The notes below the pieces were generated by a model. The model was not told the DNA's origin. It searched no databases and saw nothing but the letters and a program-made list of their open reading frames with translations. This document shows, in pieces, positions 2,945 to 50,687 of a stretch of 64,000 nt of DNA. Origin of the DNA: Spirochaetota bacterium (GTDB lineage Bacteria > Spirochaetota > Spirochaetia > SZUA-6); contig JAADHF010000112.1 of assembly GCA_013151965.1 (NCBI GenBank), positions 29,668 through 93,667 of the forward strand. Reading direction: 5' to 3'. Position numbers and translations under genes: made by a program. Numbering within the stretch: position 1 is the stretch's first letter; each line of letters begins with the position of its first letter.

Positions 2945-4304
<1,360 letters not shown>

Positions 4305-4325
4305 TGACAAATCGGAAAATCATAA

Positions 4326-4355
4326 AGCCGGCACATTAACTGCCGGCTTTTTTTA
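4326..4355. terminator. Bidirectional rho-independent terminator between convergent eno and acyP
   Basis: 8-bp perfect stem AGCCGGCA / TGCCGGCT with a 7-nt loop, followed by T7 on the + strand and A-rich on the - strand. Confidence 0.6.
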
Positions 4356-4634
4356 ATACTGTACGGTGAAACCCCTGTATAATCCGCTGTACGTGCTGTT
4401 CTGTACCTTAACTTCCCTGACAAAAGCGCCGGGAGGGCCTTTTTTTAGCCATTCTATCAGCCTGGTACAGTTCTCCGGACTCCCCTCTGCCACAACTTCC
4501 ACCGAACCATCCGGCATGTTTCTTACATACCCCGAAATTTTCAGCCTCCTTGCCATGTACACAGCGGAAAACCTGAAACCGACCCCCTGTACGGTACCGT
4601 AAACATGAGCTATAAAGGCTTTGTTCTTAGACAA
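4353..4634 (-). CDS. acyP: Acylphosphatase
   Basis: 93 aa. The acylphosphatase signature VQGVGFR and the C-terminal GxVxN..G.V motifs are present. Confidence 0.85.
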   Translation of the reverse strand: MSKNKAFIAHVYGTVQGVGFRFSAVYMARRLKISGYVRNMPDGSVEVVAEGSPENCTRLIEWLKKGPPGAFVREVKVQNSTYSGLYRGFTVQY

Positions 4635-4638
4635 TTAA

Positions 4639-5010
4639 CTAATCCTGTTCGTTTTGTTCCGCCTGCAGAGACTCCGCGATAAGTTTTTCAAGTTCTGTGT
4701 AGTCGAACGGTTTGTACAGTACCGGAAACGGAATCAGAAAATCCGATTTTAAAAAGCCGCTTGTAATGATAATTTTCTTATCACCGAGATAACGTTTTAA
4801 AAACCTTACCCAATAATCTCCGCCTAATATATCCATTCGATAATCCGTTACGATAATGTCTATTGTATGATCAAGGAGATGTTTTATTGCACCGACTCCG
4901 TCGGAGGCGACAAACACCTCATATCCCTTACGCTTTAAAAAATCCCGCAGCGTCAGCCGGATCGAGTCTTCATCTTCGACAACCAGGACAGTACCTTTTT
5001 TATGCGCCAT
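4639..5010 (-). CDS. Single-domain response regulator (CheY-like receiver)
   Basis: VLVVEDED, phospho-acceptor D in IIVTDYRM, T in IIITSG, K in LYKPFD. There is no output domain. It overlaps the upstream gene by 11 nt (ATGGCGCATAA). Confidence 0.8.
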   Translation of the reverse strand: MAHKKGTVLVVEDEDSIRLTLRDFLKRKGYEVFVASDGVGAIKHLLDHTIDIIVTDYRMDILGGDYWVRFLKRYLGDKKIIITSGFLKSDFLIPFPVLYKPFDYTELEKLIAESLQAEQNEQD

Positions 5011-5623
5011 TTCCCCTTCTATACTTTAAAATCAAATCATTAATTTTTACTACAAGCACTTCCAGATCCAGCGGTTTGGTATATATCGCTTCCGCACCCT
5101 CTTTTAAAAGTGCTTTTCTCTCTTCCGGATTATCCAATCCCGTTATTCCTATTATAACAGGATTGCCAAGATCCGGATCGGATTTAATCTTTCTGCACAA
5201 TATATGTCCATCGATGCCCGGAAGATAGATATCGAGTATTATTATTCCCGGCTTCCACTCGGATATCATTCTGCCTGCTTCGTATCCGTCAAAGGCCTGC
5301 AGAATGGTAAATTCGGGCATTTTTCTCGACAAATACCGTTTAATAATATGATTTATATCCCTGTCATCATCTACAATGAGTACTCTCTGCCATTCTGCAA
5401 TTTCTTCCTCTCCTGCATCGATTTCTTCCGGAATCCGCATTCCCCTGGATTTTAAGAACTCGAGCAGATCCTCCTCATAAACCCGGTACTGGCCGCCGGG
5501 AGTCATAAATGCTTTTAAATAACCGCTTTTTATCCAATTGATAGCGGTCTGATTTACGACACCGCATATGTTGGCTACTTCCAGAGCAGAAAATATCCTT
5601 ATCTTCTTTTCATTTTTGGCCAT
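5000..5623 (-). CDS. Atypical response regulator: N-terminal excisionase/MerR-type HTH (HTH_17-like) fused to a C-terminal REC domain
   Basis: The N-terminus ALEVANICGVVNQTAINWIKSGYLKAFMTPGGQYRVYEEDLLEFL matches the excisionase-family HTH pattern. The C-terminal REC has DDD, D in IILDIYLPG, T in GITG and K in YTKP. Confidence 0.75.
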   Translation of the reverse strand: MAKNEKKIRIFSALEVANICGVVNQTAINWIKSGYLKAFMTPGGQYRVYEEDLLEFLKSRGMRIPEEIDAGEEEIAEWQRVLIVDDDRDINHIIKRYLSRKMPEFTILQAFDGYEAGRMISEWKPGIIILDIYLPGIDGHILCRKIKSDPDLGNPVIIGITGLDNPEERKALLKEGAEAIYTKPLDLEVLVVKINDLILKYRRGNGA

Positions 5624-5646: not shown

Positions 5647-5683
5647 ATTTTTAAGAGTTTATTTCTCTATATTCTTTAGTATA

Positions 5684-6370
5684 GTGATTATGTCCAGTAT
5701 GTCAATGTCAGATTTTCATAAAGCTGTTTGCGATTACCGTTTTCTCCTGGAGCGGGGATACCCGGGAAAAGCTTCGCTGAAACTTATAGGGGACAGGTAC
5801 CGGCTGTCTAAAATCCGGAGAAACTGCCTTTTCCGCGGTGTTGTAGATTCCGGAACGGCCTTTAGCAGGAAAAGAAAAATAGTGCCCCTGAAAAAAGCCG
5901 AAGCTGTTGCTGTCGGTGTTGACTGGTATAATACACTGATTACCGTAGAGAGCTATTTAAAAGGCTGCACTCTCTTTATAGCAGATGATGGTATTGTAAG
6001 GGATTCGGCAGGAATACACGGAAGCTACAGAGAAAGCAGGGTCACTGAAAAAGCGGTAAATGAGATTATTAAACATCTGGTAAATTTAAAACCGGACAGG
6101 CTGGATATCTTTATCGATTCTCCTGTTTCATATTCCGGAGTCATGGGAGAAAAGATCCGCAGCAAACTGGAAAACGCCGTTAAAGGGAAATACAGTGTGC
6201 AGCTTGTTCCCTCTGCGGATTACCCTCTTAAAAGATATAGAGGTATTGTAGCATCTTCCGATTCGGTTATCCTGGATTCCGCTGCTGCCGTAATCGACCT
6301 TCCCAGGTTCATACTGGAATACTGTTTTAATTACATTCCGCCTGCAGTTGAAAACCTCAATCTTCCATAA
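5684..6370 (+). CDS. Hypothetical protein, DUF434-like N-terminus plus a NYN/PIN-like (DUF5616-like) C-terminal region
   Basis: The N-terminus FHKAVCDYRFLLERGYPGKASLKLIGDRYRL resembles DUF434. VGVDWYNTL, IADDG and FIDSP resemble NYN/PIN-type acidic motifs. The start codon is uncertain because there are several in-frame ATGs. Confidence 0.45.
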   Translation: MIMSSMSMSDFHKAVCDYRFLLERGYPGKASLKLIGDRYRLSKIRRNCLFRGVVDSGTAFSRKRKIVPLKKAEAVAVGVDWYNTLITVESYLKGCTLFIADDGIVRDSAGIHGSYRESRVTEKAVNEIIKHLVNLKPDRLDIFIDSPVSYSGVMGEKIRSKLENAVKGKYSVQLVPSADYPLKRYRGIVASSDSVILDSAAAVIDLPRFILEYCFNYIPPAVENLNLP

Positions 6371-10134: not shown

Positions 10135-12051
10135 ATGAAAGATATAAAGGAAGAATTAAGCAGAATAATCGGCTCATCGAATTTTATCAGCAGTATAAGG
10201 GCAGTAAAAGAAAAAAGGGGAGAAAGCGTACTCTTCGGGGATTCCATACGGAAGCTTACCGAAGATGAGATAAAAATCCTTAAAGGTAACGGAAACTACT
10301 GTAATGACTGGTCTTTAATTGCGGTTGTTTATGATTTTAATCCGGGAAAAATCATAAACAGCCTCTTCTTCGGAAAATGTGTTTTGGGGAAATTTACCGG
10401 CGAAACAAGAGATGTTGCCGGAAGTATCTCTCTGCCCACAGGTATTTACAGAAGTACCATAATCAATTCGGAAATAGGAAATGAAGTATTTATTTTAGGA
10501 AACGGCAGTATATCCGGATACATAATAAAAAGCGGAGCTGCAGTTATTAATACGGTAAGTCTATCACATATTGCCGGCGGCTCCTTCGGTAATGGTCTGG
10601 AACTTGCAATCGGAATAGAAACGGGAGGCAGGGAAGTTCTTTCCTTTGCAGAATTGACAATAGATACCGCAGCACGCATTGCAACGGAGAGGGATAACGA
10701 ACAGGTACTCTCCGGCTATAACAGATCTGTTAAAGATTATACGGAAGCTGCAAAGAGCAGTTTCGGAGTGGTGGAAAAAAACGCACGGATATTGAATACA
10801 GTAAGAGTTGCAAATTCCTATATCGGTGATTATGCCGTTATAAATGGTGCGAATGTTATAGAAAATTCTACTATTTTAAGCGGCAGCGGAGAAGAAACAG
10901 AAATAAGCGGCGGAGCATATGTCAGAAATTCGTGTATCCAGTGGGGCTGTTCCGTATCGTCTATGGCAATCGTGGATAGTTCCGTATTAACGGAACATTC
11001 ACATGTGGAGCGCCATGGAAAAGTAACAGAAAGCATCATAGGCCCCAATACCGAAATTGCAGAGGGTGAAGTAACTTCATGTATAGTAGGGCCCTTTGTT
11101 GGTTTTCATCATCAGTCGCTTCTTATTGCCGCAATATGGCCGGAAGGCAGAGGGAATGTCGGATACGGTGCCAATGTCGGTTCCAATCATACATCAAAAG
11201 CACCTGACCAGGAAATCTTCTGCGGGGAAGGAACTTTTTTCGGACTTGGTGTAAATATTAAGTTTCCCTCCGATTTTTCCGCAGCACCTTACAGTATCAT
11301 AGCGACAGGGGTAAGCACACTTCCGCAGAAGGTAGAATTCCCTTTTTCTCTCATTAATGAACCTGCCGCTCATTTTCCCGGCATATCACCGGCATATAAC
11401 GAAATATTCCCTGCATGGGTTCTGTCCGACAATATCTATATGATAAGGCGTAATGAAGGAAAATACAGAAAACGAAATAAGGCAAAACGGACGCAATTTA
11501 TTTATGATGTTTTCAGACCGGATATTATAGACAGGATGATACGTGCACGGGAAACGCTTCTGTCTGTCCGGATAAAAAAGGATATCTATCTGGATAAGGA
11601 TATCAGGGGAATAGGAAAAAACTTTCTTCTGGAGAAAAACAGGGTCAAAGCAATAGAGACTTACTCATACTATATACGGTACTATGCCCTTTCCGGCATA
11701 AAAAAAATGATAGATAAAATAATCGGCAGCGGGAGAAAAATCAGGGAAAGCATGCTGCACGATAAACTTCCGGAAAACAAAAGATGGGAACATGAGCATA
11801 AGATTCTCTGCAAAGAGGGACTGGCAGATAACGGCATTAAAGAAAACCTTAAACTGCTGCTCGAAATGGAGGAAAAAATTGCACGCTCCACCGGGGAATC
11901 CAAGGCAAAGGATGATAAAAGGGGAAAAAGAATAATAAAAGACTACACTGCCGCACATAAACCGGCTGAAGAAGACAGTTTTGTTATCGAAACATGGAAA
12001 AAATATCATAATCTTAGAAAAGAGATAGAAAGCTATGAATTCTGCAGTTGA
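10135..12051 (+). CDS. DUF4954-like protein with a left-handed beta-helix (hexapeptide-repeat) core and a C-terminal helical domain
   Basis: Hexapeptide-like periodicity runs over about 250 aa (IGDYAVINGANVIENSTILSG...IIGPNTEIAEGEVTSCIVGPFVG...VGYGANVGSNHT). The downstream gene overlaps it by 17 nt. Confidence 0.6.
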   Translation: MKDIKEELSRIIGSSNFISSIRAVKEKRGESVLFGDSIRKLTEDEIKILKGNGNYCNDWSLIAVVYDFNPGKIINSLFFGKCVLGKFTGETRDVAGSISLPTGIYRSTIINSEIGNEVFILGNGSISGYIIKSGAAVINTVSLSHIAGGSFGNGLELAIGIETGGREVLSFAELTIDTAARIATERDNEQVLSGYNRSVKDYTEAAKSSFGVVEKNARILNTVRVANSYIGDYAVINGANVIENSTILSGSGEETEISGGAYVRNSCIQWGCSVSSMAIVDSSVLTEHSHVERHGKVTESIIGPNTEIAEGEVTSCIVGPFVGFHHQSLLIAAIWPEGRGNVGYGANVGSNHTSKAPDQEIFCGEGTFFGLGVNIKFPSDFSAAPYSIIATGVSTLPQKVEFPFSLINEPAAHFPGISPAYNEIFPAWVLSDNIYMIRRNEGKYRKRNKAKRTQFIYDVFRPDIIDRMIRARETLLSVRIKKDIYLDKDIRGIGKNFLLEKNRVKAIETYSYYIRYYALSGIKKMIDKIIGSGRKIRESMLHDKLPENKRWEHEHKILCKEGLADNGIKENLKLLLEMEEKIARSTGESKAKDDKRGKRIIKDYTAAHKPAEEDSFVIETWKKYHNLRKEIESYEFCS

Positions 12052-14368
12052 AATCAGGGCACTTGAAAAATCAGGGCATAAACTTAAGTACAGTCCGACA
12101 GAAAAAACAGGTGTTATAACGGTAGATAATTTTCCCGAACTGGGAACATTAACAGCATTAAGATTCTTGGAATGGGTGCAGAAAAACCCGGGCGGTGTAG
12201 TATCCCTGCCTACAGGCAAAACCCCCGAGTATTTTATAAAAGAGGTCAGAAGGTTAAAAGAAGGCTGGGAAAGCAGCTCCGTAAAAAAAGAACTCGAAAA
12301 CCGGGGAATAGACCCGTCTGTAAAACCGGACTTTAAAAGCCTCTGCTTTGTTCAGATAGATGAATTCTACCCGATAAGCCCTCTGCAGCATAACAGTTTT
12401 TACTACTATGTCAATGAGTTCTACATTAACGGTTTCGGACTCGATCCCGGAAAAGCTCTTCTTATAAACTGCAGCGAAATAGGCCTTCCCGAAGGAAAAC
12501 AGATGGAAGACATCTGGCCGGCGGGTAAAGTAGATCTGTCTCTGCGCTGCCGGGCTCCGGAAAGCAAAACGGAAATTCTGCAGAAGGAAACACTGTACAA
12601 AATAGACCAATGGTGCGTCGAGTACGAAAACAAAATACGTTCGTCAGGCGGAATAGGTTTTTTCTTAGGAGGCATAGGCCCTGACGGCCATATAGGATTT
12701 AATGTCCGCGGGTCGGATTTCTACTCCACAACACGTCTCGCCGGAACAAATTACGAAACACAGGCGGCTGCAGCTACCGACTTAGGCGGAATAGAAGTTG
12801 CCAGAAACCGGCTTGTCATTACCATCGGGCTTTCCACAATCACTTTTAACCCTGAATGTACTGCCATAATCATTGCAGCAGGAGACGCCAAAGCTAAAGT
12901 TATTGCAGATGCAGTTCAGAATAAAATGAATGTGGTATATCCTGCCACTGTCCTTCAGAAATTACCCAATGCACGTTTTTTCTTAACCAGGGGTGCATCC
13001 GGACTTTTAATAGAACGCAATGTAAAGTCATTCACCGAAAAAAGAGAACCGAAAACAGATGAAATAGAAAAAATCATAATCGACCTTTCCGCAGAAAAGG
13101 GCAAACCGGTCTCACAGCTTGTTCCCGAAGATTATAATGCTAATTCTCTGGCAAAAGCTCTATACAGAAGATATCCGGAAAAAATAAAAACATTTCAGGA
13201 TCGGACAATACAGGACCTTAAAGCTAAAATCGCACGGGGAACAAAAATAAACAGCGGCAGGGTATTCCTCCATACCGAACCGCACCATGATGATCTGATG
13301 CTCGGCTACCTTCCGTTTATAGTACGTCATATAAGAGACCACAGCACGCGGCACTACTTTACAACCCTGACAAGCGGTTTTACATCGGTTACCAATAAAT
13401 TCATGCTGAATCAATTAAAAAATCTCAAAGAATACATTAAAAAGGGATACTTTAACCGGCTATTCCGAACTAATTACTTCGATTCTGATAACGTCGAGGG
13501 GAAAAACAGGGATGTATGGCAGTACTTAGACGGTGTTGCTGCAGACTCGGAAGACATGAAACATGAGGGAGAATTAAGGCGTCTTACACGGAATCTTATC
13601 CATATATTCAATGAAAAGGAACTGCAGCAACTTGAGTACCGGATAGACGAACTTATAAACTATTTTAACACGCAATACCCGGGGAAAAAGGATATTCGGC
13701 ACATTCAGCTCTTAAAAGGGATGAGCAGGGAGTGGGAAGCAGACTGCCTCTGGGGATATTTCGGCTGGCATTCGGATTCTATTTTTCATTTAAGATTAAG
13801 CTTTTACAGGGGTGATATCTTTACAGAGGAACCTACCGTAGAGGGTGATGTAACCCCTGTCCTTAATCTTTTAAAAAAGATTAATCCGGATATTGTTACA
13901 GTGGCATTCGATCCGGAGGCAAGCGGACCGGACACTCACTACAAGGTACTCCAGGCGGTTACGGAAGCCTTAAAGCTTTACGAAAAGGAATCCGGCCGTT
14001 CCGATATAGAAATAATCGGCTACAGAAATATCTGGTACCGGTTCCACCCCTCGGAAGCGGACATCTTCGTGCCCGTTTCGCTTAATATGTTTTCTCTCCA
14101 GTCCAATGCCTTTTTAAACTCCTTTATAACTCAAAAAACCGCCTCTTTCCCCAGTTACCTTCATGACGGGCCGTTTTCCGAACTGGCTCAGAAGATACAG
14201 GTAGAACAGTACCAGACGCTTAAAACCTGTCTCGGAAGAGATTTTTTTAACAATCACAGAGTTGCACTTATGCGTGCAACACGGGGAATGGTATTCCTGA
14301 AGAAGATGAGTTTAACGGAATTTTACCGGTACTCACGGGAGCTGAAAAAGGGAACAGAGAATAGATAG
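12035..14368 (+). CDS. Fusion protein: NagB-like sugar-phosphate isomerase/deaminase domain (N-terminus) plus PIG-L/LmbE-family N-acetylglucosaminyl deacetylase-like domain (C-terminus)
   Basis: The N-terminus has SLPTGKTP, FVQIDEF and GGIGPDGHIGFN, which are NagB motifs. The C-terminus has HTEPHHDDLMLGY (the PIG-L PHxDD motif), with further H/D residues downstream. Length is 777 aa. Confidence 0.7.
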   Translation: MNSAVEIRALEKSGHKLKYSPTEKTGVITVDNFPELGTLTALRFLEWVQKNPGGVVSLPTGKTPEYFIKEVRRLKEGWESSSVKKELENRGIDPSVKPDFKSLCFVQIDEFYPISPLQHNSFYYYVNEFYINGFGLDPGKALLINCSEIGLPEGKQMEDIWPAGKVDLSLRCRAPESKTEILQKETLYKIDQWCVEYENKIRSSGGIGFFLGGIGPDGHIGFNVRGSDFYSTTRLAGTNYETQAAAATDLGGIEVARNRLVITIGLSTITFNPECTAIIIAAGDAKAKVIADAVQNKMNVVYPATVLQKLPNARFFLTRGASGLLIERNVKSFTEKREPKTDEIEKIIIDLSAEKGKPVSQLVPEDYNANSLAKALYRRYPEKIKTFQDRTIQDLKAKIARGTKINSGRVFLHTEPHHDDLMLGYLPFIVRHIRDHSTRHYFTTLTSGFTSVTNKFMLNQLKNLKEYIKKGYFNRLFRTNYFDSDNVEGKNRDVWQYLDGVAADSEDMKHEGELRRLTRNLIHIFNEKELQQLEYRIDELINYFNTQYPGKKDIRHIQLLKGMSREWEADCLWGYFGWHSDSIFHLRLSFYRGDIFTEEPTVEGDVTPVLNLLKKINPDIVTVAFDPEASGPDTHYKVLQAVTEALKLYEKESGRSDIEIIGYRNIWYRFHPSEADIFVPVSLNMFSLQSNAFLNSFITQKTASFPSYLHDGPFSELAQKIQVEQYQTLKTCLGRDFFNNHRVALMRATRGMVFLKKMSLTEFYRYSRELKKGTENR

Positions 14369-33376: not shown

Positions 33377-34054
33377 ATGAAAATATTAATAGTTGAGGAT
33401 GACAGCAGAATTGCCACGTTTATTTCCAGAGGATTGACGCAGGCCGGTTACACGGTAGATCATCTGGAAAGTGCGGAAGAGTGCCTCCGGATTACCAAAA
33501 ACATACCGTACGACCTGATAATAATCGATATAATGCTTCCCGGAATGGACGGCATAACATTGATAGAGACTCTAAGAAGCAGGGGTTCTATCATGCCGAT
33601 ACTTATTTTAAGTGCCAGACAGTCCGTAGATGACAAGGTAGAAGGGTTAAGGCACGGCGGCGATGATTACCTTACCAAACCTTTTTCATTTACAGAACTT
33701 CTTGCAAGAATCCAGGCCCTTATAAGAAGATCCAGCCGCATATCGGGCAGTTCCGCAAAACTAACAGCAGGCGATCTCTCCCTCGACCTTTACAGTCATG
33801 AAGTAAAACGGTCAGGGCAGAAAATCGATCTAAGACCGAGAGAATTTGCCCTGCTTGAATACCTCATGCGGAACGCCGGTAATGTTCTGACAAAAACCAT
33901 GATAATGGAAAAGGTCTGGAATTACGATTTCGATCCGCAGACAAATATCGTGGATGTGCTTATATCCAGGTTGAGAAATAAAATCGATAAGGATTATGAA
34001 AATAAAATGATAAAAACCATCCGCGGTGTGGGCTATGTTCTTCAGGTCACTTAA
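33377..34054 (+). CDS. OmpR/PhoB-family response regulator
   Basis: MKILIVEDD, DIMLPGMDG and KP are present, with a winged-helix C-terminus (LRPREFALLEYL...IKTIRGVGY). The start is 9 nt after the tRNA 3' end. The upstream ATG at 33326 is rejected because it lies inside the tRNA. Confidence 0.88.
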   Translation: MKILIVEDDSRIATFISRGLTQAGYTVDHLESAEECLRITKNIPYDLIIIDIMLPGMDGITLIETLRSRGSIMPILILSARQSVDDKVEGLRHGGDDYLTKPFSFTELLARIQALIRRSSRISGSSAKLTAGDLSLDLYSHEVKRSGQKIDLRPREFALLEYLMRNAGNVLTKTMIMEKVWNYDFDPQTNIVDVLISRLRNKIDKDYENKMIKTIRGVGYVLQVT

Positions 34055-35423
34055 ATTCCGTATTGCCCTGTTTTTTCTCATCCTTTTTATTTCAGGTGCC
34101 GCAATACTGTACAGTACTTCCTATCTTTTTTTTACAAGATCGCTAAAAAATGATTTCAATAATGAAATGAGATTCCTCCTTTTGAATTTCTGGGCACAGT
34201 ACCAGTCCGGCGGTCTCGAATTTTTATCACAGGAACTTGTCCGGAACAAATATGAAGGAAAAGCCTTTCTTATCCGCATAGCAGACAGGACAAATACGAC
34301 ACTTTTCCTTCTCTACCCGAAATTATGGGATAATTTTAATTTCGATTCCCTGGACAGGATAAAACCGGCCGATAACGGGAACGGTATTCTTCTTAAAACC
34401 CCGGAATATTTATGGAATATAGAGGTAAAAACGGTACTTCTGCCTGACAGCAATATCCTTCAGGTCGGGATCAGTAACGAGGACACAATAAAAATGCTTA
34501 AACATTTTCGGGGTATCTTTCTGCTGGCTCTGCTCCCGGTTCTCCTTATAAGTTTTGCAGGGTTTTTCTTATTTGCAGCAGGTGCTTTAAAACCCCTCGA
34601 TAAAGTAATCGATACTGCGGATAACATAATCAGAACAGGAAAAATAAAGACAAGGATTCCATATAAAGACAGCGGAGACGAGATCTCAAAACTTATCAAT
34701 ACCTTTAACACAATGTTAAACAGCATAGACTCTTCCATGGAAAGGATGAAAAACACCCTTGATAATGTTGCCCATGACCTTAGAACTCCGATGACACGCC
34801 TGCAGGGAACAGCAGAAATAGCCATCGGAACTGCAAAAAACAGCGAAATGTACAGAGAAGCCCTGCAGGAATGCGTGGATGATACCAGGACCATAATGAC
34901 GCTTGTAAATACGCTTATGGATATTTCCGAAGCGGAAACAGGTATCATGAAATTAAGAAAATTATCCGCCGATATTTCCCTGCTGGTTAAGGATGTTGCA
35001 GAATTCTATTACTACCCTGCAGATGAAAAGGGAATAACCATTACAACGGATATACCTAAAAATATCTCTGCGGAAATCGACATAAACAGGATAAGACAGG
35101 TCCTGGCCAATATTCTCGATAACGCCGTTAAATATACTCCCGAAAACGGTGAAATAAACGTTTCCCTCTACAGGGAAACAATTAACGGAACACCTCATAT
35201 TTGTATAAGAATCTCTGATAACGGACCGGGTATTCCCGAACAGGATATTGAACACATATGGAACAGGCTTTACAGGGCTGATAATACCAGGAACATAAAA
35301 GGCCTGGGATTGGGCTTAAGCCTTGCAAAAGCAATTGTAGAGGCTCATAACGGCAGCATAAAAGCGGAAAACAGAAAGAATCACGGAGCCGTATTTACCA
35401 TATCTTTGCCCGTCCGTCAATAA
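34026..35423 (+). CDS. Sensor histidine kinase (2 TM, HAMP, HisKA, HATPase_c)
   Basis: The H-box is HDLRTPMTRL. The N, G1 and G2 boxes are present (NAVKYT, DNGPGI, GLGLGLS). Confidence 0.85.
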   Translation: MWAMFFRSLKFRIALFFLILFISGAAILYSTSYLFFTRSLKNDFNNEMRFLLLNFWAQYQSGGLEFLSQELVRNKYEGKAFLIRIADRTNTTLFLLYPKLWDNFNFDSLDRIKPADNGNGILLKTPEYLWNIEVKTVLLPDSNILQVGISNEDTIKMLKHFRGIFLLALLPVLLISFAGFFLFAAGALKPLDKVIDTADNIIRTGKIKTRIPYKDSGDEISKLINTFNTMLNSIDSSMERMKNTLDNVAHDLRTPMTRLQGTAEIAIGTAKNSEMYREALQECVDDTRTIMTLVNTLMDISEAETGIMKLRKLSADISLLVKDVAEFYYYPADEKGITITTDIPKNISAEIDINRIRQVLANILDNAVKYTPENGEINVSLYRETINGTPHICIRISDNGPGIPEQDIEHIWNRLYRADNTRNIKGLGLGLSLAKAIVEAHNGSIKAENRKNHGAVFTISLPVRQ

Positions 35424-41765: not shown

Positions 41766-44633
41766 TCAGCCGTCGACTTTTTGTTCACGCTCATGTTTTT
41801 CCATAACCTGCCGGTATACCTTTTCTTTAAAACGATCAAAATCCACAGGTTTGGAAATGTAGTCATCGAAGCCCATTGTCAGATACTTTTCCGCATCACC
41901 CTTTAGCGCATTTGCCGTAAGTGCTATAACATAGAGGCCTTTTAATTTCTCATTTTTTCTTATACCCTCAAGAACCCCGGGACCATCAAGTTTCGGCATC
42001 TGAATGTCGAGAAGTACCAGATCATAATCCTTCTCATTTATCATTTTAAGGGCATTCTCACCATTCTCCGCTACATCGCAGGACAGATGCATCTTATTCA
42101 GAATCCTCTCCATCAGCTGCTGATTAATACGGTTATCCTCGGCAAGAAGAATATTAAAATCCGTTTCCAGGTTGGGAACCATGTTCCGCTCCGTCTTTTC
42201 ATCGAGGTATTTAACAGGTATGCCGGCAATAATACCTTTAAGGCGGAACAGGAGATCTCTGATTTGAGTAATACTGTAGTCATTCTTGTTTATTTCTTCG
42301 TCCATTCTTTTTGAAATCTCATATACCTCATCCATCTTAAGATTACCCGACATACCTTTAAGTTCATGAGCTATAAACCGTATTCCTTTTCTGTCTCTCT
42401 TTAAGACAGCATCTTCGAGTTTTTTTACCTTTAAAGGCAGCTTTTTTACACCCATTAAAAGCACTTCGACTATTTCCTCTTCACCATCGAAGTTATCTAT
42501 CCAGCGCTCCACTACCCCTTCATCTGCAGTTTCTTTTTCTCCGTTTAACAATGCTCCTTCGGTCATAGAATTAAGAGATTCTTTTTTATCATCACCTGCC
42601 GTCGATAATTCATGACTTTCCCCGGAAACGGTTTCTGCAGGTATAGTCAGGGTAAAAGTTGTGCCTTTGCCGTATGTACTTTTTACAGAAATACGTCCGC
42701 CCATGAGCTTTGCAAGTTTTCTGGAAATTGCAAGACCCAGTCCCGTACCTCTCGATGCCGTTTCGGCTGTTCCCATTATCTGCCTGAAAGGAGAGAATAT
42801 AATCTTTTGATCTTCTTTGCGTATCCCGATACCGGTATCTTTTACGGAAATTGACAGCTTCCCTTTTCCGTACCTGGCAATAAGAGTGATACTGCCCTTT
42901 TTAGTAAACTTGAAAGCATTACTTAAAAAATTTATTATAATCTGGCCAAGGCGTACTTCATCACCACGGATTGTTCCGGGAATTGATTTATCGATCTCCG
43001 TAATAAATTCAAGACCCTTTTCCTCCGCTTTTCTTTTGAACATACTCACCATGTGATCCAGAACTTTCATTACCGTAAAGGGCCTGGAGACGATCTCCAT
43101 TTTGTCAGCTTCTATTTTCGAAAAATCAAGAATATCATTTATCAGATTAAGCAGTGTCTCCCCGGATTGTTTGATGATCCTCATGCTATTCTTTTTTTCC
43201 GGATCTTTCTCTTCATCCATCAGGAGATTAATAAAACCGAGAATTGCATTCATCGGAGTTCGAATTTCATGAGACATATTGGCAAGAAAAACGCTTTTTA
43301 ATTGATTGGCCTTTTCCGCTTCTTCCTTTGCCTTTTTTAGTTTCTTCTCCATTTCTTTCTGCTGCGTTATATCGTCCTTCACCGCAACGTAATTAATTAT
43401 CTGTCCTTCACTATTCATAACCGGTGTAATAACCGCACTTTCCCAGTAGAGACTTCCATCCTTCTTTCTGTTGATAAACTCACCCTTCCACGTTTTCCCC
43501 TCCCGAATGGTTTTTTTAAGATCATGGTATGTTTCCTCCGAAGTAAAGCCGGAACTGAAGAGACGGGGAGTTTCCCCCATAGCCTCACTTATCCGGTAGC
43601 CGGAGATATGTTCCATTGCCTTATTTGCAAAGATTATTTTCTCATCCACATCTGTAATAACTATCGTACTTTTACTCTGTTCGACAGCCTGCAGAAGTCT
43701 TAGAATCTCTCTGTCCGCTTCTTTTAATTTTGTTATGTCCGTTCCATAGAAATAAACGGCATCACCGAATCCGGTTTTAATTGCGGTAAACATGATTATG
43801 GCATTAGATCCTGTAACCTCAAATTGGAAAGATTCACCTGACAGCATCTTCTCTATATCACCTTTCAGGTGTATCCGGGCAAGCGAATCTATACTTTTTC
43901 CGATAGGATCTTCACCGAAAAACGAACAGGCAACAGGATTACAGAATGTTACTGTACCCCGGGAATCCGTGCGTAATAGTATAGCCGGATTAGCCTGAAA
44001 AAAACGTGATTCTTCGCTCAGTTTCCCCGCAATAATTTTTTCTTTTGATATATCCCGGACTAAAGCCATCGATCCTGAGAAATTTCCGGATTTACCGGTA
44101 ATAACGGAAGGCGTAATTGCCAATACTATTTCTTCTCCGTCCTTTTTTTGTACGGTCAGCTCATACGGCAGAGATGTTCCCGTTCTTCCCTCTTTATTCT
44201 GTTCATGTATAACGGAGAAATCACTAAAACGCCTTCCTATCAGTTCCTCACTGCTGTACCCTGTAATATCACAGAGGCTGTCATTTACAAATATTATAAC
44301 ACCATTGCTGTCCGCTATGATTACACCTTCGTTCATCGTTTCTATTAAATCTTTATAACGTATTCCGTTTCTAAAAAACATTTCACCATCCGGTTTGTTT
44401 TTAATCTTAATCGATATAAGAATAATACCTGCCGTCAGGATGAGAAGAGCGGCAATAATTGATATTAACAGCCATTCACCGTTAAAAAGAATGATAAAAA
44501 CAATAAGAACAAGCAATGAGACAATCAGTACAGCCGATTTTTTTATCAGGGGAAACATTTCTTTTAAATTATCGCCATCTTTCAAGTTTAATTTCATTAT
44601 TATAATAGTAACAACGATATTGCCTGATTTCAA
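41766..44633 (-). CDS. Hybrid sensor histidine kinase: TM, three PAS domains, HisKA, HATPase, HPt, REC
   Basis: The H-box is SHEIRTPMNAILGF, the HPt motif is HELKGMSGNL, and the C-terminal REC has LLAEDN...DIQMP. The start codon is uncertain because there are several N-terminal Ms. Confidence 0.85.
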   Translation of the reverse strand: MKSGNIVVTIIIMKLNLKDGDNLKEMFPLIKKSAVLIVSLLVLIVFIILFNGEWLLISIIAALLILTAGIILISIKIKNKPDGEMFFRNGIRYKDLIETMNEGVIIADSNGVIIFVNDSLCDITGYSSEELIGRRFSDFSVIHEQNKEGRTGTSLPYELTVQKKDGEEIVLAITPSVITGKSGNFSGSMALVRDISKEKIIAGKLSEESRFFQANPAILLRTDSRGTVTFCNPVACSFFGEDPIGKSIDSLARIHLKGDIEKMLSGESFQFEVTGSNAIIMFTAIKTGFGDAVYFYGTDITKLKEADREILRLLQAVEQSKSTIVITDVDEKIIFANKAMEHISGYRISEAMGETPRLFSSGFTSEETYHDLKKTIREGKTWKGEFINRKKDGSLYWESAVITPVMNSEGQIINYVAVKDDITQQKEMEKKLKKAKEEAEKANQLKSVFLANMSHEIRTPMNAILGFINLLMDEEKDPEKKNSMRIIKQSGETLLNLINDILDFSKIEADKMEIVSRPFTVMKVLDHMVSMFKRKAEEKGLEFITEIDKSIPGTIRGDEVRLGQIIINFLSNAFKFTKKGSITLIARYGKGKLSISVKDTGIGIRKEDQKIIFSPFRQIMGTAETASRGTGLGLAISRKLAKLMGGRISVKSTYGKGTTFTLTIPAETVSGESHELSTAGDDKKESLNSMTEGALLNGEKETADEGVVERWIDNFDGEEEIVEVLLMGVKKLPLKVKKLEDAVLKRDRKGIRFIAHELKGMSGNLKMDEVYEISKRMDEEINKNDYSITQIRDLLFRLKGIIAGIPVKYLDEKTERNMVPNLETDFNILLAEDNRINQQLMERILNKMHLSCDVAENGENALKMINEKDYDLVLLDIQMPKLDGPGVLEGIRKNEKLKGLYVIALTANALKGDAEKYLTMGFDDYISKPVDFDRFKEKVYRQVMEKHEREQKVDG

Positions 44634-46074: not shown

Positions 46075-46977
46075 ATGAATAATTTTAAGGAACTGTTGGA
46101 ACGGGCCGGGCAGAAGCGCGGATGCATAATCTCTGTTGCACAGGCGGCAGATAAAACAGTCCTGGATGCGGTAAAGCAAGGAACGGAAGCAGGACTCATA
46201 AGTGCAATCCTTGTAGGAAGCAGAGCTGCAATAAAGAAAAAAGCCGAAGAAACGGGGCTTAAACCGGGTTCATATACAATTACGGAACCCGAACCGAACG
46301 AATCACCGGCAGTTACCGCGGTAAGGCTCATTAAAGAAGGCAAAGCTGATATTCTCATGAAAGGCCTTATACCCACCGGAGAACTGCTTAAGGAAGTACT
46401 GCGCAGGGAAAACGGCCTTAATATGGGCAAGACCCTGTCTCATGTTGCTGTTTTTAAGCATCCCGGCTATGACCGCTTTATATTTGTAACAGATGCGGGT
46501 CTTAACATTGCGCCCGATCTCTCACAGAAGAAAGATATTGTTCAGAACGCCATCGACCTTGCTGTAAGCCTCGGGGTTAAAGAACCTGTTGCGGCTGCCG
46601 TTTGTGCAGTGGAGGTCGTTAATCCCGCAATGCCGGCAACAATAGATGCCGCTTCACTTGCGAAGATGAGCGAACGGGGAGTAATAAAAGGCGGCAGGGT
46701 AGAAGGACCTCTTGCTCTGGATAATGCAGTTTCAGTGGAAGCCGCACAGCACAAAGGCATAAAAAGCCCCCTTGCAGGCAGAGCCGATATTCTTCTTGCC
46801 CCGGATATCGAGGCAGGAAATATCCTGTACAAATCGCTGATTTTTTTCACTTCTGCCGAAGCCGCAGGACTAATTGTCGGAGCCCGGGTACCGGTGGTTT
46901 TAACCTCCCGGTCGGATTCCGCAGCAAGCAAACTGTACTCGATCGCCCTCGGTGTACTTTCCGTCAAAGAGAACTAA
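46075..46977 (+). CDS. ptb: Phosphate butyryl/acetyl-transferase family (Ptb-like)
   Basis: 300 aa of the PTA_PTB family (DAGLN, LLAPDIEAGN). Confidence 0.8.
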   Translation: MNNFKELLERAGQKRGCIISVAQAADKTVLDAVKQGTEAGLISAILVGSRAAIKKKAEETGLKPGSYTITEPEPNESPAVTAVRLIKEGKADILMKGLIPTGELLKEVLRRENGLNMGKTLSHVAVFKHPGYDRFIFVTDAGLNIAPDLSQKKDIVQNAIDLAVSLGVKEPVAAAVCAVEVVNPAMPATIDAASLAKMSERGVIKGGRVEGPLALDNAVSVEAAQHKGIKSPLAGRADILLAPDIEAGNILYKSLIFFTSAEAAGLIVGARVPVVLTSRSDSAASKLYSIALGVLSVKEN

Positions 46978-47972: not shown

Positions 47973-50687
47973 ATGCCGGAAAAGAAAATTAAACTGCTGG
48001 ACCTAATACGCCTCTCCTTCATCATCTTTTTGATTTCGCTCGCCGCTGCAATAGCGGTATTCCAGGCCATAAGCTCCTACCATAGTTTTAACAGCAACAC
48101 CATAAAGGTTCGATCGGATTATATAAAAAAGCAGAAATGGTTAATTAAAAGGGAAGTGGACCATGTTGTCGAAATAATTAAATACGAAAAAGATAAAGTA
48201 AAAGCAGAAGCAAAACAGGAAGTTACACATAGAATTAACGAAGCTCTGGATATCGCTGAAGATATCTACCTTCGGTACACCGGCGAAAAGAAAGATGCCG
48301 AAATTAGAAAAATGATTGTGAATACATTAAAATCGATCGGTTTTGATGACAATAAGAACAGGTACTTTATAAAAGACGCAAACGGAGTTCCCATTTTAAA
48401 TATGAAACCGAAGTACAGAGGTTTAAAATATAAGAAAACGGGAAATGCAGAGGAAAGTGCTTTTAAAATATTCAAACCCTTTAACTGGTACATCGGTACA
48501 GCTGTTTCCCCGGCCGATATCCGAAAAAAAGCACAGGAACAGCTAAAAAAATATATCGGGAAAATCCGTTTCGGACCTGATAAAAACGGATACATTTTTG
48601 TTAATTCATACAATGGCGACTGCCTTGTTCTTAACACTCAGAAAGAACTGGAAGGCACCAATATCTGGAATATTACAGATACGAACGGTGTAAAGGTAGT
48701 ACAGGAGGAAAGAAAAGCCGCGGAAAAACCGGGCGGAGATTTTATCTATTATACGTGGAATAAACCGTCCACCCGGGAACCTTCTCCGAAAGTTTCTTTT
48801 ATAAGGGGAATCGATGACTGGAAATGGATTATAGGAGCAGGCGTATATCTCGATGATGTGGAAAAGAATATAACAGCAATGCACGACAAATTAAAAAATA
48901 AATTAAAGTATGATTTTCTGCGCATTGCAGTGATAACAGGTTTACTCATTTCGCTTTTTTTATTCTTATTCCATTTAATAAGCCGCAGGATACAGAGTGA
49001 TTTTTTTCTGTTTATCTCGTTCTTTAAGCAGGCTGCTGTTTCCGATAAGGAAATCGATCAGAGTAAAATAAAATATGACGAGTTTTCCCGAATGGCTGAT
49101 TATGCCAACAAGATGCTGAAAGATAAAATGAAGGTTTACCATGAATTAGTGGAGGAAAAAGAACAGTTAGCTGTCACTCTGCGGTCCATCGGTGATGCAG
49201 TAATTGTTTCCGGCATATCCGGCGGCATCATACTTATGAACAGGGTGGCGGAAAAATTAACCGGATGGGAGCAAAACGAAGCAGCAGGCAAACCGCTTGT
49301 AAATGTATTTAATATTATTAACGAATACTCGAGAAAACCGGCAGAGAACCCGGTAAAAAGAGTACTGAAAAACGGAAAGATTGCGAATCTTGCCAATCAT
49401 ACCGTTCTTATTGCAAAGAACGGAAAAGAATACTGTATAGAGGACAGTGCGGCACCTATACTGGATAGTAAAAACAATATCAGGGGAGTTGTCCTTGTAT
49501 TTCGCGATGTAACGGAAAAGTTAAAGAAGGAAAAAGAAATGTTAAAAGTAAAAAAATTAGAGTCCGTCGGGATTCTCGCCGGCGGAATCGCCCATGATTT
49601 TAACAATCTTCTAACTGCAATTTACGGCAATATTTCCCTTGCCAGAATAAACGTAAAACCTGCGGAAAAAGCTTATGAGTATCTTGAGATAGCAGAAGAA
49701 TCTCTCCAGAGAGCAACCAACCTGACCAAACAGCTTTTAACCTTCGCAAAAGGCGGAGAACCTGTATTGGGTGCCGTTAAAATAGAAAAAATAATCGGGA
49801 AAACCGCCAAATTCATCCTTACGGGCAGCAATGTAAAACTTAATCTTTATACGGAACCCGAATTATGGCAGGTAAAAGCAGACAAGGGACAAATAAGCCA
49901 GGTTATTTCCAATCTGGTGATAAATGCAAAACAGGCTATGCCGAACGGAGGGAATCTGTATATCGATACAAGTAACGCTGATATAGGCATAAAGAACAAT
50001 ATAAAAACAGTTTCGCCGGGACGATATGTAAAGATTACCATTAAAGACGAGGGGATTGGAATTCCTAAAAAAGATCTCGAACGGATATTTGATCCGTATT
50101 TCAGCACCAAAGAGTCCGGTTCCGGCCTGGGGCTTGCAACAGTGCACTCCATTATCCAGAAACATGACGGGTATATATATGTCGATTCGATTCTTAACAG
50201 GGGAACTACTTTTACAGTTTATCTTCCTGCTCTAACCCCGGAGGAGAAAGAGCAAAACCTCCCATATAAAGACAGGGAATCCGTTAAAAATAATAATTCC
50301 GCTAAAATACTTGTCGTGGACGATGAGGAGGAGATTAGAAAGGTAGCGGGCAAGATGCTTGAAATTATCGGGCATACGGTTGAATTTGCCGGAAACAGCA
50401 GAGAGGCTGTCAATAAGTATAAAAATGCTATGAAAACAGGCAGCGCTTTTGATATTGTAATAATGGATCTGACAATGCCGGGAGGATTGGGCGGCAGGGA
50501 AACGGCAAAAGAAATACTTAAAGCTAATCCTGATGCAAAAATAATAGTTTCCAGTGGTTATTCCACAGACCGGATTATGGGAAATTACAGGGAATTCGGA
50601 TTTATAGGAATGGTTGCAAAACCATACAGACTTATTGAAATGAAAAACGAAGTTCAGCGCGTTTTACAGATACGGAATAACGAATAA
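47973..50687 (+). CDS. Hybrid sensor kinase: periplasmic double-Cache domain, PAS, HisKA, HATPase, C-terminal REC
   Basis: Two TM helices flank a roughly 290-aa extracytoplasmic domain. The H-box is AHDFNNLL. The ATPase boxes are present. The REC domain has LVVDDEEE...IMDLTMPG. Confidence 0.85.
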   Translation: MPEKKIKLLDLIRLSFIIFLISLAAAIAVFQAISSYHSFNSNTIKVRSDYIKKQKWLIKREVDHVVEIIKYEKDKVKAEAKQEVTHRINEALDIAEDIYLRYTGEKKDAEIRKMIVNTLKSIGFDDNKNRYFIKDANGVPILNMKPKYRGLKYKKTGNAEESAFKIFKPFNWYIGTAVSPADIRKKAQEQLKKYIGKIRFGPDKNGYIFVNSYNGDCLVLNTQKELEGTNIWNITDTNGVKVVQEERKAAEKPGGDFIYYTWNKPSTREPSPKVSFIRGIDDWKWIIGAGVYLDDVEKNITAMHDKLKNKLKYDFLRIAVITGLLISLFLFLFHLISRRIQSDFFLFISFFKQAAVSDKEIDQSKIKYDEFSRMADYANKMLKDKMKVYHELVEEKEQLAVTLRSIGDAVIVSGISGGIILMNRVAEKLTGWEQNEAAGKPLVNVFNIINEYSRKPAENPVKRVLKNGKIANLANHTVLIAKNGKEYCIEDSAAPILDSKNNIRGVVLVFRDVTEKLKKEKEMLKVKKLESVGILAGGIAHDFNNLLTAIYGNISLARINVKPAEKAYEYLEIAEESLQRATNLTKQLLTFAKGGEPVLGAVKIEKIIGKTAKFILTGSNVKLNLYTEPELWQVKADKGQISQVISNLVINAKQAMPNGGNLYIDTSNADIGIKNNIKTVSPGRYVKITIKDEGIGIPKKDLERIFDPYFSTKESGSGLGLATVHSIIQKHDGYIYVDSILNRGTTFTVYLPALTPEEKEQNLPYKDRESVKNNNSAKILVVDDEEEIRKVAGKMLEIIGHTVEFAGNSREAVNKYKNAMKTGSAFDIVIMDLTMPGGLGGRETAKEILKANPDAKIIVSSGYSTDRIMGNYREFGFIGMVAKPYRLIEMKNEVQRVLQIRNNE

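Follow-up and report, generated by a model that had tools for sequence, protein, structure and literature searches.

What is an acylphosphatase gene doing behind two genes for receiver proteins that have no kinase beside them? The question is raised by a minus-strand operon in a 64,000-nucleotide (nt) stretch of a Spirochaetota genome (assembly GCA_013151965.1, contig JAADHF010000112.1, positions 29,668 to 93,667), the whole of which is hereafter called the window. Its three genes encode a regulator that carries an HTH_17-family helix-turn-helix (HTH) domain in front of a receiver (REC) domain (HTH-REC, its receiver being REC1), a stand-alone receiver (REC2) and an acylphosphatase. We found the operon to be real, strongly conserved and apparently unstudied, and its predicted products suggest an output module of the two-component type that includes an uncommon accessory enzyme. 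To our knowledge, the in vivo role of bacterial acylphosphatases is still unclear, and how orphan response regulators escape phosphorylation by metabolic acyl phosphates is, as far as we know, an open question; the operon joins both in one fixed genetic unit. No paper was found that links acylphosphatase to response regulators or to Treponema, and no paper or functional study was found on HTH_17 response regulators. A possible literature counterpart, TrtA of T. denticola, is an unrelated XRE-family protein.

The preliminary description had drawn three genes on one strand, joined by an 11-nt overlap and a 4-nt gap, with no histidine kinase adjacent. All three open reading frames (ORFs) and both junctions were recovered, and the region, running from a promoter through three translationally coupled genes to a terminator, is predicted to be a single transcription unit (Table 1). 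The closest histidine kinase gene (34026-35423) is coupled with its own OmpR-type regulator gene; none lies within about 28 kb of the triad in the window, and no kinase adjoins the triad in any annotated flanking context. The cognate kinase next door that marks a classical two-component system is absent from all of these contexts.

We examined the conservation of the arrangement, which had been named as a check on its significance, in two sets of loci. For the genome set, one genome per species was scanned, a relative was found in at least 519 species and the best 80 loci were fetched; the metagenome set held the best 80 of at least 555 matches, seeded with the pseudo-receiver variants described below (L091-L170). 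Locus counts rest on tblastn and hmmsearch, ORF calling being crude. The closest locus (L001) belongs to a Spirochaetales metagenome-assembled genome (MAG) of SZUA-6, with 96-98% protein identity. In the genome set the arrangement recurred in 74 of 75 evaluable species loci, those with sufficient sequence downstream (67 loci with REC2 and acylphosphatase and 7 with acylphosphatase only, the last one having REC2 only), and it is therefore far beyond chance. The triad was kept although prolyl-tRNA synthetase (ProRS) is only 43-65% identical across the same genomes, and the intergenic gaps were mostly -17 to +34 nt and -32 to +82 nt. In the metagenome set the acylphosphatase was present in 34 of 36 intact-receiver loci. 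When core-family loci with intact receivers were taken from both sets, the acylphosphatase was found in 108 of 111 (97%) and REC2 in 101 of 111.

At least five flanking contexts surround the triad: eno/proS; glmS with a nucleotidyl-transferase gene; M20/M29 peptidases; Tex/adenosine deaminase, in Treponemataceae; and luxS/pfs, in Gracilinema caldarium, which is in culture. Another cultured species, Marispirochaeta aestuarii, shows the same arrangement as the window, and with at least two such carriers the question is directly testable. REC2 was lost at least four to five separate times, each time with the acylphosphatase still directly behind the regulator, and for every locus without REC2 there is a relative with REC2 whose regulator is 63-97% identical. 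The operon is widespread in the class Spirochaetia, being kept in well over a hundred genomes and found in hundreds of species, which argues against the coincidental juxtaposition that the preliminary description had allowed for in case no relative shared the arrangement.

Two observations concern individual loci. The full spirochaete triad, with the regulator at 63% identity, also occurs on a contig (L009, JARRLT010000201.1) that was assigned to a 'Promethearchaeota archaeon' MAG and is most likely bacterial and mis-binned. Apparent frameshifts, seen as split tblastn matches or a shortened ORF, affect the enolase of L040, the regulator of L056 and the recX, DUF434 and acylphosphatase genes of L068; errors of assembly or pseudogenes could account for them.

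The regulator has the MerR/excisionase-type N-terminal winged HTH expected from the preliminary description, both by Pfam (Table 1) and in an AlphaFold model with a predicted local distance difference test (pLDDT) score of 86.8. In the model a winged helix-turn-helix (residues 10-59, strand-helix-helix-strand-helix) is followed by a flexible linker of low confidence (60-76) and by a receiver (77-206) whose five strands and five helices make a complete (beta-alpha)5 fold. The coiled-coil dimerisation helix and C-terminal effector-binding domain of MerR proteins are lacking. The phosphorylation pocket of REC1 is complete (D85/D86, phospho-acceptor D131, T161 and K183), and alignments A1 and A2 and 80 alignable genome-set sequences show its key residues as invariant or T/S, the frameshifted L056 regulator being left unscored. 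All of the top 50 Protein Data Bank (PDB) fold matches of REC1 were receivers. The closest solved match was PDB 3cnb (sequence E = 4e-17; template modelling (TM) score 0.91 on the target); no solved full-length homologue was found, as every fold match spans the receiver only. The reversed order of domains, with the HTH in front, was thus borne out; it is not unique and is already catalogued, since 3cnb is the receiver of a Colwellia psychrerythraea protein deposited as 'DNA-binding response regulator, merR family', a name that implies the same pairing of a MerR/excisionase-type domain with a receiver. Only the receiver of that protein has been solved and no function is described, whereas in the spirochaete family the HTH is near-invariant, and a second receiver and an acylphosphatase complete a fixed operon. 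Fungal Skn7, mentioned in PMC4951753, shares the order of an N-terminal DNA-binding domain and a C-terminal receiver; it differs in being eukaryotic, in its heat-shock-factor-type DNA-binding domain and in being fed by a phosphorelay.

The HTH-REC family gave 2701 matches at E <= 1e-5, and each named match among the 120 listed was a spirochaete. Across the class the HTH is almost invariant over about 50 residues (alignments A1 and A2). The motif reads SALEVANICGVVNQTAINWI..LKAF.TPGGQYRVY (window residues 10-62; proteins P0248-P0374; loci L083-L108, L166 and L170-L172), and the gene usually stands directly after rplM-rpsI-recX. Such a near-invariant HTH beside rplM-rpsI-recX points to a core spirochaete transcription factor, so far unstudied.

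REC2 scored 47.6 bits against the Pfam Response_reg cut-off of 30.2, with a match that covers profile positions 1-82 only. Its pocket is intact (E12/D13, D56, T83/S84 and K100) and is kept in 70 + 43 sequences. In agreement with the partial Pfam match, the AlphaFold model (pLDDT 82.6) has no alpha-4 and hence an incomplete (beta-alpha)5 fold: a 12-residue loop joins beta4 (79-84) to beta5 (97-99). A fold search did not place REC2 in a special receiver subclass, giving generic receivers only, for example Spo0F and PhoP. Like known phosphate-sink receivers, it has no output domain and is encoded with a regulator.

The last gene had been called an acylphosphatase, and it passed both cut-offs for that family (Pfam PF00708, 87.8 bits vs 22.5; NCBIfam PRK14426, 94.8 vs 89). 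The window protein has the phosphate-binding loop VYGTVQGVGFR and the catalytic Asn in GYVRN, and the VQGVGFR loop and the Asn of G[WY]VRN are kept in 74 orthologues; the catalytic Arg and Asn motifs are thus both retained. In Pfam the protein matched only acylphosphatase and none of the known receiver-phosphatase families (CheZ, CheC/CheX/FliY, Spo0E and Rap). In size, fold family and catalytic motifs it resembles the common-type acylphosphatases (E. coli YccX, human ACYP1/2), from which it differs in having a fixed genomic partner; we know of no common-type acylphosphatase gene in an operon with signalling proteins.

A natural experiment was provided by relatives in which the receiver of the regulator has decayed. 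An exhaustive profile search returned many proteins of 190-220 aa with the same near-invariant HTH and a degenerate five-residue pocket (for example DHNAQ, DQGSG, TGDDL and D-P-S-A-Q). Distances among these variants are about as large as those to the intact family, so pocket decay appears to have occurred repeatedly and independently. Their genomic contexts were obtained by exact look-ups and from the metagenome scan, loci were sorted by profile alignment, and lineages were counted from pairwise identities rather than from a tree. REC2 was found in none of the 21 evaluable pseudo-receiver loci (about 10 lineages), against 101 of 111 intact loci, a difference with a Fisher p of 4e-17 that ignores shared ancestry and so overstates the evidence. 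The acylphosphatase was retained in 11 of the 21, belonging to five of ten lineages (L084/L087, the L098-L108 clade, L166, L171 and L172), and was absent from the other 10 loci, in five lineages (L083, L085, L089, the L091-L097 clade and L170); here the Fisher p against 108 of 111 intact loci was 2.5e-7, overstated in the same way. Where it remained, the enzyme gene lay 5-18 nt downstream of the pseudo-receiver gene wherever the gap could be read, with catalytic motifs intact wherever checked. Repeated receiver decay thus supplies natural controls, in which REC2 is always lost and the enzyme in about half of the lineages.

Because REC2 is absent whenever the receiver of the regulator cannot be phosphorylated, it appears to behave as a strict phospho-partner of that receiver. 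The acylphosphatase seems only partly tied to phosphorylation: its persistence beside HTH proteins that cannot be phosphorylated means that part of its value is independent of receiver phosphorylation, and the link therefore does not rest solely on dephosphorylation of these receivers. This pattern fits poorly with an enzyme that is purely a receiver phosphatase. It is compatible with an enzyme for small acyl phosphates that serves both signalling hygiene and metabolism, and also with a passenger gene lost more often in fast-evolving lineages.

The HTH itself stays near-invariant even in the roughly 10 lineages where the receiver has decayed and operon partners and promoter box are gone. In L091 and L093-L097 the HTH gene lacks its own promoter: it directly follows an upstream coding region, separated from it by no more than a ribosome-binding site (AAGGAGG), and appears to have been absorbed into the upstream operon.

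Control of the operon was approached through its promoter. The window promoter reads TTGACATACTGGACATAATCACTATACT and contains GACATA twice, 9 nt apart. From the upstream regions of divergent species we derived the family promoter TTGACAT-T-[AC]-TGGATATAAT-N3-TATA[ACT]T, in which the spacer positions, TGGA above all, are as informative as the -35 and -10 hexamers. The box was present in 55 of 80 genome loci (<=5 mismatches) and in 38 of 58 intact-receiver metagenome loci (<=4 mismatches). All 46 matches with <=2 mismatches in the 793 kb of fetched loci lay at the operon's own promoter, and the box occurred once in the window; a regulon search found no further box-bearing targets elsewhere in the window or in those 793 kb of related loci. 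Since sigma-70 promoters do not usually have conserved spacers, we infer from the alignment that it is a candidate operator for HTH-REC, which would make the operon autoregulated. The likeness to classical MerR activators lies in an N-terminal winged helix of the same Pfam clan and in a conserved element within the promoter spacer. The receiver, however, takes the place of their coiled-coil helix and effector-binding domain. MerR activators correct spacers of 19-20 nt by twisting the DNA; the box here lies in a spacer of 16 nt, near canonical sigma-70 spacing, which speaks against MerR-type distortion and makes steric autoregulation the likelier mode. The box is absent from pseudo-receiver loci except L166, an acylphosphatase-bearing locus in which two tandem TGGATATAAT copies, 11 nt apart, replace the usual promoter. 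This repeat hints that TGGATATAAT is the recognised unit, with binding perhaps to direct repeats.

A palindrome in the leader had also been named as a sequence on which to test binding of the regulator. The inverted repeat is real and perfect, and overlaps the Shine-Dalgarno sequence of the first gene; it is confined to the window and the 96%-identical L001, and the RNA fold is unremarkable (z = -1.16), so it was rejected as the operator and is probably incidental or a local translational hairpin. A riboswitch or other leader RNA was likewise rejected, since the Rfam matches were sub-threshold only, both fell at the terminator and no family matched the leader. On the other strand, a divergent DUF434/DUF5616 gene (5684-6370, +) begins inside the operon promoter, with an overlap at 5699-5707, so that both genes must be controlled from one shared, face-to-face region. 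ATGTCA, noted as the reverse complement of the -35 hexamer TTGACA, stands in tandem there at 5699-5704 and 5705-5710, the second copy lying opposite the -35. This neighbour was detected by tblastn in 26 of 79 other genome loci.

Taken together, we tentatively read the locus as the autoregulated operon of an orphan regulator, with REC2 as sink or partner and an acylphosphatase that drains acyl-phosphate donors and so feeds back on the receivers, an account that we place somewhat short of probable. HTH-REC would be a transcription factor phosphorylated on D131 of its receiver, and would probably bind the TGGAYATAAT box in its own promoter spacer and so autoregulate the operon. The alpha-4-less REC2 would be its phospho-partner, acting as competitor, sink or shuttle for the same phosphodonor. 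The co-transcribed acylphosphatase would most likely hydrolyse small acyl phosphates, such as acetyl phosphate, lowering the kinase-independent phosphodonor pool and thereby feeding back on the two receivers; it would also be of metabolic use in its own right, and this would account for its survival in some lineages after receiver decay. DNA binding at the box, the phosphodonor, the substrate of the acylphosphatase and the sign of regulation are all deduced from comparative data. That the enzyme is a working part of the module, resetting both orphan receivers through destruction of their small-molecule donor, in a feedback loop that would sense and clear acetyl phosphate, or through direct hydrolysis of aspartyl phosphate, we consider plausible, if doubtful. 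If true, this would be the first defined physiological role for a bacterial acylphosphatase and a new type of accessory enzyme in two-component signalling.

The preliminary description had proposed such a phosphate-sink or dephosphorylation circuit, and the proposal fared unevenly: conservation, tight coupling, the absence of an adjacent kinase from every annotated context, intact pockets and intact catalytic motifs support it, while retention of the acylphosphatase without a phosphorylatable receiver and the lack of fusion proteins do not. These last points, and several others, weigh against our reading. An intact acylphosphatase has survived in five of ten pseudo-receiver lineages, where the HTH protein encoded in front of it lacks a phospho-acceptor and REC2 is missing. 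A search for REC-acylphosphatase fusions with a concatenated REC2 and acylphosphatase query (857 matches) yielded none, the 120 listed matches all being single-domain receivers of about 120 aa. Shared ancestry, together with the generally faster evolution of pseudo-receiver lineages, confounds the contrast in loss rates. About one-third of intact-receiver loci have no promoter box, and the invariance of the HTH where box and operon partners are gone means that its main targets or partner must lie outside the operon. The two hybrid kinases of the window (Table 1) could feed the orphan receivers; together with the phosphate acyltransferase encoded between them, they are possible unlinked inputs, and 'orphan' status is for this reason no proof of acetyl-phosphate dependence. 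Finally, synteny alone is weak evidence, because the unrelated rpsI, recX, eno and proS genes are also syntenic in many loci.

The same synteny, the persistence of the enzyme beside pseudo-receivers, the empty fusion search and the hybrid kinases would also be expected if a housekeeping acylphosphatase merely ended an ancient, vertically inherited operon and had no functional tie to receivers that are fed by unlinked kinases or phosphorelays; the enzyme is, moreover, less conserved (median identity 48%) than the two receivers (62% and 68%). We regard this passenger explanation as rather unlikely, as the triad has remained whole despite at least five changes of the surrounding genes, the acylphosphatase has stayed directly behind the regulator after at least four deletions of REC2 from between them, and its loss is rare with intact receivers (3 of 111) compared with degenerate ones (10 of 21). 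Alternatively, HTH-REC might sense through an unlinked kinase and control the acylphosphatase as a local target, with no feedback on the receivers. Co-transcription from a conserved and probably regulated promoter, an HTH-acylphosphatase pair that outlives both REC2 and receiver function, and the acyl-phosphate-forming enzyme and hybrid kinases of the window fit this account, in which metabolic acyl phosphates (1,3-bisphosphoglycerate or acetyl-, butyryl- or carbamoyl-phosphate) would be the substrates. The account seems improbable to us: nearly all pseudo-receiver loci that keep the acylphosphatase have lost the box, so HTH control of the enzyme is not conserved there, and the HTH is near-invariant where the enzyme is absent, which argues that the enzyme is not its essential target.

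The remaining explanation would make the acylphosphatase a dedicated protein phosphatase that hydrolyses the aspartyl phosphate of one or both receivers directly, in effect an auxiliary response-regulator phosphatase of a new class. Phospho-aspartate itself belongs to the acyl phosphates, co-translation is tight and the enzyme is retained in 97% of loci with intact receivers. Known receiver phosphatases (CheZ, CheX/CheC, Spo0E and Rap) insert a residue into the receiver's own active site, and a Mg-bound phosphoryl group in an acidic receiver pocket is a poor fit for the acylphosphatase loop. Acylphosphatase is reported to act on the aspartyl-phosphate intermediates of P-type ATPases and to speed their breakdown in the Na,K- and Ca-ATPases (PMC7192388 and its references 40-42). 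With the enzyme kept in operons that have no phosphorylatable receiver, and with no fusion found, we judge a dedicated protein phosphatase highly improbable.

Among known systems, the operon resembles those in which an accessory protein beside a receiver shortens or diverts its phosphorylation: CheZ, CheC/CheX/FliY, Spo0E, Rap, and sink receivers such as the second CheY of Sinorhizobium meliloti. Like the latter, REC2 has no output domain, and it is gone whenever REC1 loses its pocket. The acylphosphatase resembles none of the auxiliary phosphatase families and, unlike them, has small acyl phosphates and P-type ATPase intermediates as its known substrates. Acetyl phosphate has been proposed as phosphodonor for Rrp2 of Borrelia burgdorferi (PMC2940757), likewise a spirochaete response regulator, for whose phosphorylation an adjacent kinase is not required and for which acetyl phosphate is a candidate donor. 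Rrp2 differs in being an NtrC-type activator with a neighbouring kinase gene and no co-encoded acyl-phosphate-degrading enzyme, and acetyl-phosphate dependence of the operon described here is hypothetical.

Table 1 Features of the operon and of possible input genes in the window (nucleotide positions in the window unless residues are given).
Feature	Position	Strand	Details
Sigma-70-type operon promoter	5705..5678	-	TTGACA (5705-5700), 16-nt spacer, TATACT (5683-5678); 11/12 consensus positions
Conserved spacer box ATACTGGACATAAT	5687..5700	-	Family consensus AT-T-[AC]-TGGATATAAT; candidate operator
Leader inverted repeat TATCCTT-N4-AAGGATA	5630-5636/5641-5647	-	Perfect; overlaps Shine-Dalgarno sequence of first gene
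HTH-REC gene	5623..5000	-	207 aa, ATG start
HTH_17 domain	HTH-REC residues 15-60	-	Pfam 38.8 bits vs cut-off 27
Response_reg (PF00072) domain	HTH-REC residues 81-194	-	Pfam 69.5 bits vs 30.2; profile 1-110 of 111
HTH-REC/REC2 gene overlap	5000-5010	-	11 nt, ATGGCGCATAA
REC2 gene	5010..4639	-	123 aa, ATG start
REC2/acylphosphatase gap	4635-4638	-	4 nt
Acylphosphatase gene	4634..4353	-	93 aa, TTG start, AGGA 8 nt upstream
Bidirectional intrinsic terminator	4324-4350	both	10-bp stem, 6 G-C pairs; common to operon and convergent enolase gene
Hybrid histidine kinase	41766-44633	-	PAS-HisKA-HATPase-(weak Hpt)-REC
PTA_PTB phosphate acyltransferase	46075-46977	+	Acyl-phosphate-forming enzyme; between the two hybrid kinases
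Hybrid histidine kinase	47973-50687	+	Cache-PAS-HisKA-HATPase-REC

In the window the triad is flanked on one side by genes for a GNAT/UPF0158 protein, ProRS and enolase, and on the other by the divergent DUF434/DUF5616 gene, recX, rpsI (S9) and rplM (L13). A PADLOC search for membership in a defence system returned weak domain-level matches only. Further away, a 777-aa ORF at 12035-14368 (+) had no Pfam match at E <= 1e-4. The enolase ORF (2952-4304, +) is listed from a TTG at 2952; the conserved N terminus of the protein begins at the ATG at 3006, which is therefore probably the true start.

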